DNA of 6,758 bases from a virus (IMGVR_UViG_2579779084_000001), one strand, 5' to 3'. Counted from the first letter of the stretch, positions 1 to 6,758 are shown. The notes: a model not told the origin generated them from the letters alone. Translations and numbers: made by a program.

Positions 1-1956
1 GCATCCGTTGCCCTTGGTCGTCCCTGCCTGACGCTGCCCGAACGCGAGCATTTTCGGACTGAGCGCGATGTTGCCACCCGCAACCTTGCCACGCTTTCCC
101 GCCAGTATCGTGATGAGGTCGGGACCTTATCTGCACAGCTCGCATTGCCACGTAACACGCAGGTTGACCGTGTGATTTACGGAATTAACTGCACGGATTT
201 ATCTCTCGCTGACAGGGGCAGGGCTGCCGGACTGGTATCACAGTTTGGCTCGTTTTCGTTCACCGTGGCGCATGCTTTCTGCCGTCTGGTTTACCAGCTC
301 GGTGTGAAAAATGCGCTGATGGCGCTTGAGTCCGCGCACCGTTTTGCTTTCTTCAATCAGGACGGAGACCCTTATGAATTCTCGCTTTTCTGCACTGATG
401 AGCAGATTGCTGAGGTGGCTGATTCGGTTGTTCGTGACTGCCTTGTTTCTCGGGCCATTTATAGTGATGTACCAGAGCATCACCTTCTCAATGTGATGGC
501 CTATTTTCGGGCCATCTCCGGCTTTGATTTCGCCCCCGTTTATGCCACTTATCATGAGCGTTACGGCGATGAGGGATTGCTTAAGCGTCTGACTGATTTG
601 GCTTTTGTCACCCGTTTCCTGCGGGTTATCCGTGACCAGCGGGTCAATGAGGTCTGTCGCATGCTCGGCATACTGAACCGCAACGCGCCTTATATTTCTG
701 ACTGGCATCGTGACCTGTTTGCTGTCCGCAGTAAACGCGTGAAAAAGTATCTCCGGTCCTCCGGTGTCTTTGATGCGTTTAATGAGCTGGTCTGTACGCT
801 GGAAGATGCGCATAACGCCTCTGTTTCGAATCCGAAAAACCGGATTGCTGAACTCTGCGTTCGTGGAAAGGCCGTCTGTGAACTGTCCGAAGATATGGGG
901 CTGTCCGGCTACTTCATCGTGCTCACCACGCCGTCACGTTTTCACCCGACGACCAGTTTTAAGGTTGCCGGAAAATGGCATTCTCGTCCGAATAAAAAAT
1001 GGTGGGAAGCAGGTTGCCCGACCGTTAAGGATTCGCACGCCTGGCTGAATACCGTCTGGCGTCGGGTCTGCCGCAGACTGGATAAAGCCGGTATTCAGAT
1101 ACCCGGCCTGCGCACGGTCGAGCCTCATGCTGACGGTACAACGCACTGGAATTTCCTGATTTACTGCAATCCCCATGAGAGCGCAACGGTGCTGGCCATT
1201 TTCCGTGAAGAGGCCATGCGCGATGAGCCGGATGAAAAGGGGGCGAAAGAGCACCGTATTCGTATTGAGGCTATTGACCCTGAAAAGGGTGATGGTTTCC
1301 GTTACATCGTGAAGTACATCACCAAAATGGCGGGGGATGTCAGTGCGGATGGTATTACCGCCCTGAATGACCGTTATTCTGCCCGTTCATTCTGTGATGC
1401 CGTCAGCCGTGCCGCCTGCTGGCAGAAAGCAACGCGCCTTCGCCTGTTCCAGTTCTTTGGCGTTCCCTCCGTTACGGCTTACCGCCAGATGCGCAGCTTC
1501 CGCGCACCGCTTGAGGCGCATCATATCAATATGCAGCAGTTCACGCCGCAGCAGGTCGCCGAACTGGAAGCCATCCGCATGGCCTGTGATGCAGGCGATT
1601 TCCGGACCTATATCCTGCTGAACGGCGGTTTCTTCTGTTCTGAACGTCTGCTTCGTCCGTTTTACGTTCAGCCGCAGGAAGGTGGTAAACCCCGTTTTAA
1701 CCGTTACGGTGAACCCTGCGCACCGGTGATTTCCGGTTTCATGTTTGGCCCTGTTCCGGTCATAACCCGTTTTATGGGCTGTGTTGTCCGCCGTATGACC
1801 CCCGCAGAAAAAATCCGCGCAGAGGAAGTCAGAAGCGGCAGCAGCTATGAATCTGTGTTTATTTCGTCGGCTTCACGACACCGCACGACGCGCTCCCGCG
1901 CGGCGGGTGGGGGCGGCGAAGCCGACCCTTGGACTTGTGACAATAACTGTCCCTGA
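1..1956 (+). CDS. Rolling-circle replication initiator (Rep), phiX174 gpA / P2 gpA-like type; 5'-partial, true start probably upstream of the window
   Basis: Frame 1 has no stop codon from nt 1 to the TGA at 1954-1956. The ORF-track start at 145 is a TTG and there is no in-frame ATG in 1-144, so the gene most likely begins upstream. Contains [10 protein letters not shown] (nt 1297-1326), two tyrosines spaced Y-x-x-K-Y-x-x-K, the catalytic signature of phiX174 A / P2 A-type initiators. A His-containing segment [14 protein letters not shown] (nt 1123-1164) about 55 aa upstream is a candidate metal-binding (HUH-like) motif. Sits directly upstream of an Ff-like structural gene block. Confidence 0.8.
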
Positions 1957-1972
1957 CTGAATTTTTAACATT

Positions 1973-1978
1973 GAGGAG
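1973..1978 (+). promoter_or_regulatory. Shine-Dalgarno site (GAGGAG) for the CDS starting at 1987
   Basis: GAGGAG lies 8 nt upstream of the ATG at 1987, immediately after the Rep stop codon. Confidence 0.6.
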
Positions 1979-1986
1979 TCTGATTT

Positions 1987-2412
1987 ATGAATCAAATTTA
2001 TGACAGTTTTCCGTTTCCTTCCCCTGAGGGTTTTACTGCAGGTATGACAATGGCGGGATTTTTTATTCACGCCACTGTCATAAATGATGAGGAGTTAAAA
2101 CCCACGGGTTCTCATTATAACCCTGAGGCTAAACCCAAATATGCCATTGTTATTGGCTATCCGTATGAGGACCGAAAATTAAAAGTCCGCCGTGAGGAGC
2201 ATGAGCGATTTTCCTGTACTGAGGAGGATTTTAAATTTTTTAATTCATGTCCTGATTTGCAGGGCAAACCTGTTTATCTCACGGTGGATGTTAACTCATG
2301 GTCGACAGGCTCTGAACGTCATGGTGTCTGGTATCGTTTTATTTCCGGCTCCATGAAACGTTTTGACGGTCAGCCGCTGGGTGCACTGCCCGCAGGTAAA
2401 GAAAAAGGCTGA
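1987..2412 (+). CDS. Hypothetical protein in the gV (ssDNA-binding protein) position of an Ff-like gene order; function not established
   Basis: 141-aa ORF with ATG start and strong SD, directly between Rep and the small coat-protein genes. No obvious similarity by eye to M13 gV. It is longer than gV (87 aa) and its basic/aromatic C-terminal half (KPKYAIVIGYPYEDRKLKVRREEHERF...HGVWYRFISGSMKRFDG) would be compatible with a nucleic-acid-binding beta-rich fold. The functional assignment is inference from synteny only. Confidence 0.6.
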   Translation: MNQIYDSFPFPSPEGFTAGMTMAGFFIHATVINDEELKPTGSHYNPEAKPKYAIVIGYPYEDRKLKVRREEHERFSCTEEDFKFFNSCPDLQGKPVYLTVDVNSWSTGSERHGVWYRFISGSMKRFDGQPLGALPAGKEKG

Positions 2413-4810: not shown

Positions 4811-4813
4811 TTT

Positions 4814-6025
4814 ATGCCAGTTATTACGGGTAATCTGGGGCAGGGTAAAGGCATTGTTGCAGCTTATTTTGCCTCACTTTATTATCGCCGTGGATTACGG
4901 GTTGCGGCAAATTATCCGCTTAACACTGAATATATGTCCTCAGGTTCGGATAACCCCGTTACGGTTATTCCGGCCATGCCCCGCATTGAAGATTTTGAGC
5001 TTCTTGGTCGTGGATGTCCTGAAAATGAAAAAACACGCTTCGGAGCGTTATTTCTTGATGAGTGTGCGACATGGCTGAATACCCGTGGTTTTGCCCGTAA
5101 GGACAGATTACCGTTAATTGACTGGCTGATACATTCCCGTAAGCTGGGCTGGGATGTTTATCTGATTGCACAGCATGAAGATATGATTGATTCCCAGATA
5201 ATTAAGGCGATGGGGGCTAAAATTATTCGCTGCCGCCGTCTTGATGAATTACGTGTTCCTGTGATTACGCCACTGATGGAATTATTCAGACCAGGAAAAA
5301 CAGGGGTTGCATCAGGTAAAAGGGGGATTATTCCTCATTACGTGGCTGCCAGTACGTTTCTTTATGACGGCACGATTCACGCGGCACGTCGTCCCGTAGA
5401 TAAAATCATTATCAGGGCTGCGGATTATTACAACGTTTACGACACTAATTTCATTTTCTCTGACGGAATGGAGCTGCTTAATGACCGTTTTGTGGATATG
5501 CGTGCTGTTTATTCCGTTTTGCCCGGGCGCACACTTAAAACCATGAATCCGTTATCTCAACAACCCGAAAAAAAGGCCACCCCACAGAAAAAGCCGTGGG
5601 GCAAGCTGATTGCCTTTCTTTTCCTCGTCACCGCGATGATTGCCGTTGCCCGACATTATTTCTCCGGCGATCGGGAGGTTAGTGCCGCTGTCCCTCCTGT
5701 GCCTGAAAGCACCGTGACACCTGTACATCCTTTGCCTGCGTCAACGGTTGTATCAGAGCTGAGACAGAAAAAACCGGATGTGCTTCCGGTATCAAAGGAG
5801 TGGCGGCTTGCCGGATATGTCAGGGGAGCAAGTCCTTATTTTGTGCTGCTGGGTCCGTCGGGTCAGGTGCGACGTTATACCGCTTTTCAGCCATGGAACG
5901 GCAGCGCCACGGAACTGAATGTTGACGGTGAAAGGGTGACGTTCTGGTCAGGCCCGTCGGGGACGGCATCAAAGGGGGATACTCTGACTGACAAAATGCT
6001 TTCGTTTGATGTGAAGGGTAAATAA
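4814..6025 (+). CDS. Phage assembly protein, pI / Zot-like P-loop NTPase (inner-membrane morphogenesis protein)
   Basis: 403-aa product. N-terminal P-loop-like motif GNLGQGKG (nt 4829-4852) and a Walker B-like segment [16 protein letters not shown] (compare M13 pI LLVLDECGTWFNTRSW). Single internal hydrophobic transmembrane segment ([18 protein letters not shown]) followed by a C-terminal periplasmic-type domain, which is the pI/Zot architecture. Position matches gI. Confidence 0.9.
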
Positions 6026-6135
6026 GACAGAAGAGATACCGCTCGCCGCAAGTTTATGACCGAACGTAGTGAGCGAATAAACGAGGAAGCGGAATGTCTT
6101 CATGACTGAAAAACAGCACTTACGCACGGTATAAC

Positions 6136-6758
6136 ATGATGAGAATGATTAACTTACTGACAGCACTTTTTTTTCTGACTTCGGCGTGTGTGTATGCCTC
6201 GTCTCCGGCCTTTTTTGTTGAACGTCTTCCGCTCAATGCAGCGATACAACTGGCACAGGAAGATATTTTCAGGCGTCAGTATGCGTTGCCGCCTGAGCTT
6301 GCCAGTGATACCCGTCCGGTCACATTGGATTTAAGTCTGGCTGGCGACCAGAAAAAACAGCGTGAGGAGTATGTGCGCTGGCTCAGGCAGCTGAATATTG
6401 CTGTTGAGACACGTAATGGCGTTGATCATTATCGCTCGTTTAAACCCGTGGTTGCGCCGGAAAAAATGGTTTCATGGGTATATACGCCACTTCATCGTGC
6501 ACCGTCTTATCTGGCCTCAGTGCTTTCGGGAGCGACAGGGCGTTCATCGCAGGCGTCTTCAGAAAGTGCGTCCGGATCATCTTCGGGATCGTTATCCGGC
6601 AGTGTATCTTCAGGCTCGTTTTTATCGGGTGAAGGGGATTCACTGGTTTTCAGGGGGACAAGTTCAGAGCTGGTTCGCCTTAAGGAGCTGGTACCGCTGG
6701 TTGATGTCCCGGCTCAGGGGGTTGTGGTGACGGGGTATATTTATGAGGTACAGACAGG
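6136..6758 (+). CDS. Secretin-like protein, pIV-like (outer-membrane export channel), N-terminal part only; 3'-partial, runs off the window end
   Basis: Frame 1 is open from the stop at 6103-6105 to the window end (207 codons from the ATG at 6136) and is absent from the ORF track only because no stop is reached. N-terminus [21 protein letters not shown] is a signal peptide with a likely cleavage after VYA. The mature N-terminus ([42 protein letters not shown]...[18 protein letters not shown]) has the pattern of a secretin N0 domain and is followed by a Ser-rich linker. Position directly after the pI-like gene matches gIV. The exact start (ATG at 6136, 6139 or 6145) is uncertain because there is no clear SD. 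Confidence 0.55.

Follow-up and report, generated by a model that had tools for sequence, protein, structure and literature searches.

Introduction

What kind of filamentous phage does the viral DNA IMGVR_UViG_2579779084_000001 represent, and is it kept as a free form or as a prophage? The stretch of 6,758 nucleotides (nt), which was analysed at its whole length and is called the window below, has the gene order of the Ff phages. The window is very probably the block of genes for replication, structure, and assembly of a temperate filamentous phage (Tubulavirales, Inoviridae sensu lato) of Escherichia coli, integrated at dif via the host recombinases XerC/XerD. The phage is CTXφ-like in lifestyle and fs2-like in layout, and it is not Ff-like in replication.

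Genome organization

Nine open reading frames (ORFs) were recognized, all on the plus strand, and they occupied 96.5% of the window. Along this strand they encode Rep, the predicted single-stranded DNA (ssDNA)-binding protein in the gV slot, two small membrane proteins, the major coat protein, and, behind a terminator, pIII, pVI, pI, and pIV. The features are as follows.

1..1956, plus strand: Rep of the RstA/P2-gpA type (Pfam PF05840, PHROG_91, motifs)
1987..2412, plus strand: gV-slot protein, 141 amino acids (aa) (predicted OB fold)
2417..2557, plus strand: 46-aa protein in the pVII slot (position, one hydrophobic segment)
2550..2720, plus strand: 56-aa protein in the pIX slot (position, one hydrophobic segment), with an 8-nt overlap with the preceding 46-aa ORF
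2745..2987, plus strand: pVIII-like major coat precursor (sequence features)
3003..3028, plus strand: intrinsic terminator, stem at 3003-3020, then a T run
3048..4445, plus strand: pIII-like adsorption protein, 465 aa (domain layout)
3714..3968, plus strand: tandem 39-nt repeat, 6.5 copies, in the pIII linker (Tandem Repeats Finder, protein repeat)
4448..4810, plus strand: pVI-like minor coat protein, 120 aa (PHROG_1944, likeness to f1 pVI)
4814..6025, plus strand: pI/Zot-family assembly ATPase, 403 aa (Pfam Zot, PHROG_1675)
6026..6135, plus strand: non-coding spacer between pI and pIV, 110 nt (sequence; replaced in some relatives)
6136..6758, plus strand: pIV-type outer-membrane secretin, N-terminal 207 codons (PHROG_1012), running off the window end

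An inovirus gene block with this order on one strand had been proposed in the preliminary description of the stretch, made from the sequence alone, and it was confirmed, as was the truncation of both ends. The 5' end lies inside Rep, of which 15 codons are absent; the frame is open from base 1, and the RefSeq relatives begin 45 nt upstream. The 3' end lies inside the secretin, with 207 of 407 codons present and the last 200 absent, including the entire Pfam Secretin domain (residues 255-402). The junctions, described as tight or overlapping, were so at -8 to +30 nt and not so at two wider gaps, i.e., 60 nt with the terminator between the coat gene and pIII, and 110 nt between pI and pIV. Profile and structure searches had been proposed as the test of the whole reading. 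In these searches, pI, pIV, pVI, Rep, and the gV-slot protein fell in the expected inovirus roles, and the reading was not refuted. Homology or a fold was obtained for six of the nine products; the coat protein was recognized by sequence features and the two small proteins by position only.

The ratio of nonsynonymous to synonymous polymorphism (pN/pS) was calculated from pooled pairwise comparisons with 4-16 natural variants; because the pairs are non-independent, it serves as an indicator and not as a test. Eight ORF segments gave values of 0.06-0.39, and pIII gave about 0.6. Out of frame, the values were nearly always above 1 where computable, with pIII (0.7-0.9) as the exception, and none was computable for the 46-aa ORF. 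The natural variants show the signature of purifying selection on all window ORFs. With low values in frame against values mostly above 1 out of frame, the gene block is, by this indicator, not a chance pattern.

The plus strand was T-rich (30.6% T vs 20.9% A), and the cumulative GC skew climbed across the whole window. Inoviruses commonly show such an asymmetry on their coding (viral) strand. A promoter scan of the window did not rise above shuffled expectation, no Rfam family was matched, and the secretin was the sole window product named in the NCBIfam search. Cargo genes, toxin genes included, were not found in the window, and a direct host phenotype is therefore not predicted from it.

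Distribution and genomic location

The window DNA had no match in 50,697 deposited phage genomes. Matches were found in 42 of 5,426 complete E. coli genomes (0.8%), all of them chromosomal, and 18 covered at least 80% of the window. The full-length copies in complete E. coli genomes were all from human isolates, many in diarrhoeal-strain collections. Every full-length E. coli copy examined was located at dif adjoining hipBA, mostly in tandem. The best match, strain AST205 (98.7% identity), carried two copies of 8,578 bp in head-to-tail order, flanked by hipBA and fimbrial genes, and the 28-bp dif consensus (1 mismatch) stood directly after copy 2. The best-matching genome (NZ_AP043614.1) showed 19 separate match places for the window, beyond what two tandem copies explain.

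The exact pI protein was present in 234 blocks of public assemblies. Six distinct long contigs with this protein all showed the same hipBA/dif locus, five with 2-3 tandem copies and one with a single copy. The phage was present in RefSeq and IMG/VR; as 11 predicted viral contigs of it are in IMG/VR, the lineage has already been catalogued by software. No close pI relative was found among the GTDB species representatives. The window was identical to no single copy and is a patchwork of variants. Outside E. coli, two tandem copies, 95% identical to the window, were found on pCY-CTXM-15, a 363-kb IncHI1B/IncFIB conjugative plasmid of Citrobacter youngae (L010, 2490-20082).

Could the window instead be a free replicative form, or a plasmid-like episome, of a non-integrating Ff/IKe-type phage? 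The Ff gene order would suit it, as would the many 5-10 kb short-read contigs and the 7-9-kb stand-alone IMG/VR contigs, which could be circles or collapsed tandems. However, no PLSDB record was an episome of the phage, and the relatives have a dif-like attP. The lack of deposited phage genomes with matching DNA, the chromosomal place of all complete-genome matches, and a Rep and gV-slot protein that are not of Ff type also speak against this explanation, which is very unlikely. The life cycle of the dif-integrated phage would nonetheless be expected to include an episomal stage. The preliminary description had held that free form, episome, and prophage could not be told apart from the window. 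This is right for the window, which has neither attP nor flank, and the question was answered by the relatives, which are integrated at dif, mostly in tandem.

Small ORFs on the reverse strand were observed beside Rep in the relatives. In AST205, four of them (51, 62, 70, and 60 aa) are located upstream of Rep on the minus strand (L001, 10933-11841), and the 70-aa and 60-aa products resemble paralogues. In the same region, AATCTTCGTATCGATAGGTAACTA is repeated, and GTTAAC-containing repeats precede Rep. Other strains have the 62-aa reverse ORF only, giving a 7.9-kb unit. No Pfam match was obtained for these small ORFs, which give just an impression of ribbon-helix-helix repressors.

Integration at dif

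The integration sites were read from relatives, in DNA outside the window. On the 3' side of pIV, the relatives have AGTGCGCATAA-TGTGACACGCG-TTATGTTGAAA, a GC-rich stem-loop, and then a second dif-like site, inverted. As plus-strand DNA, this attP region folded into one long stem (-40.9 kcal/mol, z = -10), in which the two sites pair and 6 nt bulge from the 'central region'. As a duplex, the first site has its XerD-like arm five bases out of register. From the inverted second site and the register of the XerD arm, the hairpin is favoured over a duplex attP as the likely substrate.

The location at dif and hybrid junctions were seen in the relatives L001-L009. The attL consists of the host arm GGTGCGCATAA and the phage central region TGTGACACGCG (five independent strains), the junctions between copies hold the phage arm AGTGCGCATAA, and the attR consists of the phage arm and host TGTATATTATGTTAAAT. 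The Citrobacter plasmid copies were inserted at the plasmid Xer site AGTACGCATAA-TGTACG-TTATGTTAAAT, and their junctions follow the same logic with the plasmid's own arm and the central region TGTACG. These junctions fit what a single XerC-side strand exchange would predict. No recombinase was found among the ORFs of the 8,578-bp unit. Together, the sites and junctions point to integration of the CTXφ type by XerCD. Such an exchange agrees with the published description of CTXφ and with the proposal made for Ypfφ (PMC4266046, PMC3089051). Ypfφ and CUS-1, both enterobacterial dif phages, are reported to have XerCD sites in inverted orientation and to form tandem arrays (PMC4266046).

Other elements were observed in the same dif arrays. 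In the enterotoxigenic E. coli strain 700481, a tandem pair of a 3.5-kb mini-element stands behind the phage copies (L003, 12601-19700). The mini-element encodes only a gII-type Rep (PF05144/PF05155), gV (PF02303), an 87-aa protein, a 201-aa helix-turn-helix protein, and one reverse 62-aa ORF. It is without morphogenesis genes, and its first attP site is the same as that of the phage. It resembles a satellite, which would depend on a helper phage. At the right end of this mixed array (L003, 19505-19540), AGTGCGTATAAGATATATTATGTTAAAT resembles dif, but its XerC arm differs and its central region is altered, which suggests a further element or a remnant. In L005 (12601-20448), a second, unrelated, complete inovirus is located in the dif array with the same first attP site. 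This inovirus encodes a G2P-type Rep, a DUF2523 pVI, a 352-aa pI, and a 419-aa secretin. Its pI was at most 44% identical to that of any deposited phage, and an IKe/UPΦ-like identity was therefore rejected for it. In the dif form, the hairpin AGTGCGCATAATGTGACACGCG...TTGTGCGCACT would be expected upstream of the window.

Replication module

The sole Pfam match of Rep was PF05840 (Phage_GPA, 6e-49), i.e., not PF05144/PF05155, and PHROG_91, 'nicking at origin', was matched at 8e-129. Its closest phage relatives were orf698 of Vibrio VFJ/fs2 (29.5% over 580 residues, E 2e-57) and RstA of CTXφ (31%), followed by P2-type gpA. No similarity to f1 gII was found. By its sequence, Rep is an HUH rolling-circle nuclease of the RstA/P2-gpA type and not an Ff gII.

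The canonical metal-binding motif EPHHDG..HWH is altered in Rep (nt 1120-1164), where HWN replaces HWH and the preceding EPHH is EPHA. Of the clade homologues in which this motif could be located, 35 of 35 had HWN; they are 41-99% identical and come from E. coli, Salmonella, Morganella, Providencia, and Xenorhabdus. HWH persists in the P2-type relatives. The two-tyrosine motif YIVKYITK (nt 1303-1326) was intact (YxxKY), and the pN/pS of Rep was 0.11.

The 141-aa protein of the gV slot belongs to a very small family with a predicted OB fold, and is a predicted OB-fold ssDNA-binding protein. The AlphaFold model reached a predicted local distance difference test score of 36 with 14 close homologues and was usable only once five remote homologues had been added. 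For this protein, nothing credible was returned by the PDB profile search, hhalign against an alignment of Ff/VFJ gV was negative, PF02303 was not matched, and a match to PF17426 remained sub-threshold. The name Ff-like in the preliminary description thus holds for the layout and fails for Rep (RstA/P2-gpA family), for the gV-slot protein (no gV similarity), and for pI, which is only 31% identical to that of f1.

Virion proteins

The 46-aa and 56-aa proteins were assigned to the pVII and pIX slots by position only, each having a single hydrophobic segment. The 46-aa ORF, in the place of a minor virion-tip protein, has this segment at aa 6-28 and is annotated in RefSeq relatives. It had no family match in Pfam or PHROG, and its pN/pS was 0.15 with few substitutions. 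The segment of the 56-aa ORF is at aa 22-52. Its pN/pS was 0.06 against more than 3 in the other frames, and it shared 38% identity with its 52-aa counterpart in a different dif inovirus of E. coli. The pN/pS values support both ORFs as real genes.

The major coat precursor of 80 aa has a 24-aa signal peptide ending in ASA and a 56-aa mature part with an acidic N-terminus, a hydrophobic core, and a basic C-terminus (R, K, R). Its matches were weak, i.e., PHROG_17608 (6e-4) and f1 pVIII (38% over 26 aa), and its pN/pS was 0.39. The terminator between the coat gene and pIII, with a 7-bp GC-rich stem, the loop TTCG, and a T run, was the top-scoring terminator-like site on the plus strand of the window.

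The start of pIII was placed at the TTG at 3048 behind AGGAG; the in-frame ATG at 3030 is without a ribosome-binding site. The protein has a signal peptide, then an N-terminal part rich in Cys (12 Cys), and then a Gly/Ser linker. Its C-terminal domain bears a short hydrophobic tail, which was below the hydropathy threshold used. In the linker, the 39-nt tandem repeat encodes (GSGGSSGSGGSGS)x6, a 13-residue Gly/Ser unit. Its copy number varies among strains, most relatives show alignment gaps there, and the length of pIII ranged from 385 to 471 aa among strains. The C-terminal part had weak PHROG matches only (1.5e-3). The N- and C-terminal parts had no Pfam match, and the PDB matches of pIII were low-complexity Gly/Ser only; the precomputed 'Phage_Coat_A' labels on pIII of relatives were for this reason discounted as linker matches.

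The N-terminal part of pIII is the most mosaic segment of the window. Window 3001-4000, i.e., this part and the linker, closely matched one relative only (L001), and elsewhere the N-terminal part was diverged or replaced. The adsorption domain looks like a swapped host-range module.

The product in the pVI slot has three hydrophobic segments. It matched PHROG_1944, labelled 'minor head protein', at 1.7e-7, and f1 pVI weakly (27% over 104 aa), and its pN/pS was 0.11.

Assembly proteins

The assembly ATPase pI matched Pfam Zot (3e-9; 37 bits vs the 20.3 cutoff) and PHROG_1675, 'protein I of M13' (9e-50), and was 31% identical to f1 pI and 33% to VFJ pI. It has one transmembrane segment at aa 261-284 and a pN/pS of 0.18. 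'Zot' is here the family name of the assembly ATPase and is not to be read as a toxin. In the Walker A motif, GNLGQGKG (nt 4829-4852), GKG replaces the usual GK[ST]. GKG was kept in 51 homologues with identity down to about 37% (E. coli, E. albertii, Salmonella, and Enterobacter), and the remoter pI proteins have GKT or GKS. An internal start like that of pXI was unsupported, since no ribosome-binding site was found in front of Met245 of pI.

The spacer between pI and pIV is replaced in the relatives L010, L013, L017, and L018, which diverge from about 6037-6094 onward. The N-terminus of pIV matched PHROG_1012, 'protein IV of M13' (8e-30), with a pN/pS of 0.16. The full 407-aa pIV of the best relative matched Pfam Secretin (1e-24) at residues 255-402 and was 27% identical to VFJ pIV and 24% to f1 pIV.

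The non-canonical HWN of Rep and GKG of pI could be read as signs of a decaying or domesticated prophage remnant that no longer produces particles, and truncated copies do exist, e.g., L027. Nor was published evidence of virions found. Against such decay, all nine ORFs were intact and under apparent purifying selection, and homologues in different genera, at identities as low as about 40%, retain the variant motifs. The lineage also forms tandem arrays, occurs in several host lineages and on a plasmid of another genus, and exchanges modules actively, all of which disagrees with decay. A remnant is quite improbable. Because both motifs are conserved, they are regarded as features of the lineage, and the intact temperate phage is preferred.

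IS110-linked relatives and module exchange

Window 1-2405, i.e., Rep and the ssDNA-binding protein, recurred apart from the remaining window in about 10 genomes at 98.7-99.5% identity and in six more at about 89%. In L026 (7985-11412), L027 (5985-9412), and L032 (6985-10412), an IS110-family transposase gene is located 3 nt upstream of Rep. The transposase matched PF01548 and PF02371, and one RefSeq record labels it 'RNA-guided'. This IS110-linked form sits between hcxB and ybiB/dinG, not at dif. In L026 and L032, the transposase and a Rep/gV-slot module 98.7-99.5% identical to the window are followed by a different structural module. L027 (strain AST240) has the transposase, Rep, and the window-type structural genes, truncated within pI and without pIV. 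The change between the dif form and the transposase form falls at Rep codons 2-3, shortly before the window start.

The window copy might accordingly be an IS110-linked form of the same lineage, located between hcxB and ybiB/dinG. The gene content of L027, which reaches from the transposase to the truncated pI, would allow this, as would the near-identity of the L026 and L032 modules and a break between the two forms that lies before the window start. However, window 5001-6758 (pI-pIV) was identical or nearly so to the dif-type copies, and L027, the sole IS110-linked copy with window-type structural genes, does not reach pIV. All relatives examined that span the window through pIV were at dif or at a plasmid Xer site. 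An IS110-linked origin is improbable on this evidence, and the dif-integrated phage remains the preferred reading of the window.

The GC content was about 55% in Rep (window 1-2000) and about 34% in pVI (window 4000-4800). This drop would suit separate origins of the replication cassette and the structural module. In L031 (7956-15229), the one examined genome of the 89%-identity group, the cassette of Rep and the ssDNA-binding protein was joined to a third structural module (pI of 418 aa, secretin of 406 aa), and it was arrayed in tandem at dif. It was accompanied by DUF2726 and further accessory genes on the reverse strand.

A possible, rather doubtful generalization is that window 1-2405 forms a portable replication cassette of Rep and an OB-fold ssDNA-binding protein, combined with at least three morphogenesis modules and two integration devices, i.e., the Xer/dif hairpin or the IS110-family transposase. 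Rep would then act through a non-canonical HUN metal site, beside the GKG P-loop of the window-type pI. The transposase may be an alternative integration device. Should it serve as the phage integrase, an ssDNA phage of E. coli would have its chromosomal target selected by a bridge-RNA recombinase.

Proposed life cycle

The life cycle proposed for the dif-integrated phage begins with Rep, which would nick the plus-strand origin and start rolling-circle synthesis of single-stranded circles. The OB-fold protein would cover the single strand, and the coat proteins would be held in the inner membrane. The pI ATPase and the phage-encoded pIV secretin would then extrude the filament without lysis of the host. 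In the host, the phage DNA would be captured by XerC/XerD at dif, which is the chromosome dimer-resolution site. For this, the two inverted dif-like sites just 3' of pIV would fold in the plus strand into a hairpin mimicking dif, and XerC would exchange one strand pair, giving a prophage that is usually tandem. The tandem copies would let Rep make new single-stranded circles without excision, as in CTXφ. Dependence on XerCD, the role of the hairpin as actual substrate, phage production by tandem copies, and the formation of virions are inferred.

Several points weigh against this reading. The window holds neither attP nor flank, so the location at dif is deduced for its own copy from the relatives. 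Nor were an origin, a packaging signal, or a long inverted repeat found in the window; no inverted repeat of at least 14 nt within 120 nt was present anywhere in it, and thus no origin or packaging hairpin was found there. The same junction sequences would be expected from a double-stranded attP of the VGJφ type, and the attP minus strand gave a good fold too (z = -8). In relatives that share this Rep, an IS110-family transposase takes the place of the Xer site, with the homology break upstream of the window start. HWN in Rep and GKG in pI, taken alone, could suggest inactive enzymes; both are kept across deep clades. Finally, no published experimental evidence of particles was found for the lineage.

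Significance

Filamentous prophages at dif can alter host fitness and virulence, as do CTXφ, Ypfφ, and CUS-1. One copy of the present lineage is carried by a CTX-M-15 conjugative plasmid in another genus, Citrobacter. The lineage offers a tractable E. coli model for single-strand integration of the CTXφ type and natural variants of two catalytic motifs. It also shows how co-resident inoviruses swap replication, structural, and integration modules. The lineage is uncharacterised but ordinary in kind.

Comparison with known filamentous phages

The fs2/VFJ phages of Vibrio cholerae (Saetivirus) are the nearest in layout. The order is the same gene for gene, i.e., Rep (698), V, VII, IX, VIII, III, VI, I, and IV followed by reverse regulators, the last being taken from the relatives of the window. 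Both have an RstA/gpA-type Rep of about 700 aa, two small ORFs ahead of the coat gene, and their own pIV secretin. The fs2/VFJ phages gave the best deposited-phage match for Rep and were among the best for pI. However, Rep, pI, and pIV showed only 27-33% identity, and for the other proteins, including that of the gV slot, similarity was undetectable. The host is Vibrio in one case and Escherichia in the other, and the Rep motif is HNH in VFJ and HWN here. The window phage is not a member of the genus Saetivirus by any sequence criterion.

With CTXφ, the phage shares an RstA homologous to Rep, and its relatives show the inverted dif-like sites folding into a plus-strand hairpin, junctions that fit XerC-side exchange, tandem arrays at dif, and the lack of a phage integrase. 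It differs in having its own secretin, two extra small virion-protein slots, and no toxin cargo in the window.

Ff (M13/f1/fd) and IKe share the order of the structural and assembly genes, the terminator after the coat gene, the glycine-rich pIII linker, and homologous pI, pIV, and pVI. The identity to f1 was 31% for pI, 24% for pIV, and 27% for pVI. In contrast, Rep is of PF05840 rather than PF05144/PF05155, the gV-slot protein is not of PF02303, and the relatives of the window integrate, whereas Ff does not. The pI was below 60% identical to that of every deposited phage, including Lineavirus, and at most 35% identical among the matches listed.

The described E. coli dif phages, UPΦ (IKe-like) and CUS-1/Ypfφ, raise the last alternative, i.e., that the window belongs to one of them. 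They share the host group, integration at dif, tandem arrays, inverted Xer sites, variable glycine-rich pIII linkers, and the exchange of replication genes (PMC4266046, PMC7307601). They differ in the replication module and have distant structural genes, CUS-1/Ypfφ being judged here by its described layout. The proteins of UPΦ and IKe/I2-2 are about 70% identical (PMC7307601), whereas the pI of the window stays below 60% to every deposited phage; an identity with UPΦ was rejected on this indirect ground. For Ypfφ/CUS-1, an RstR-like repressor is described, with seven core ORFs counted from Rep to the end (PMC4266046). L029, a prophage at dif in E. coli whose layout resembles that of Ypfφ, was only 40% (pI) and 46% (pIV) identical to the window, and its Rep and gV-slot protein had no BLASTP match. 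Judged from L029 and the described layout, the window phage is probably not CUS-1/Ypfφ. Membership in either group is hardly credible. The literature search returned UPΦ and Ypfφ/CUS-1 and nothing describing the present lineage, which is not named in the accessible parts of PMC4266046 and PMC7307601.

A further likeness concerns the relatives and not the window. The Neisseria Nf/MDAΦ genomes, like those of L026, L027, and L032, are filamentous phage genomes linked to an IS110-family transposase. In the Nf/MDAΦ prophages, a transposase of this family acts as the integrase. The window phage is filed as an unnamed lineage of a known kind, i.e., the Xer-exploiting temperate inoviruses of Enterobacterales.

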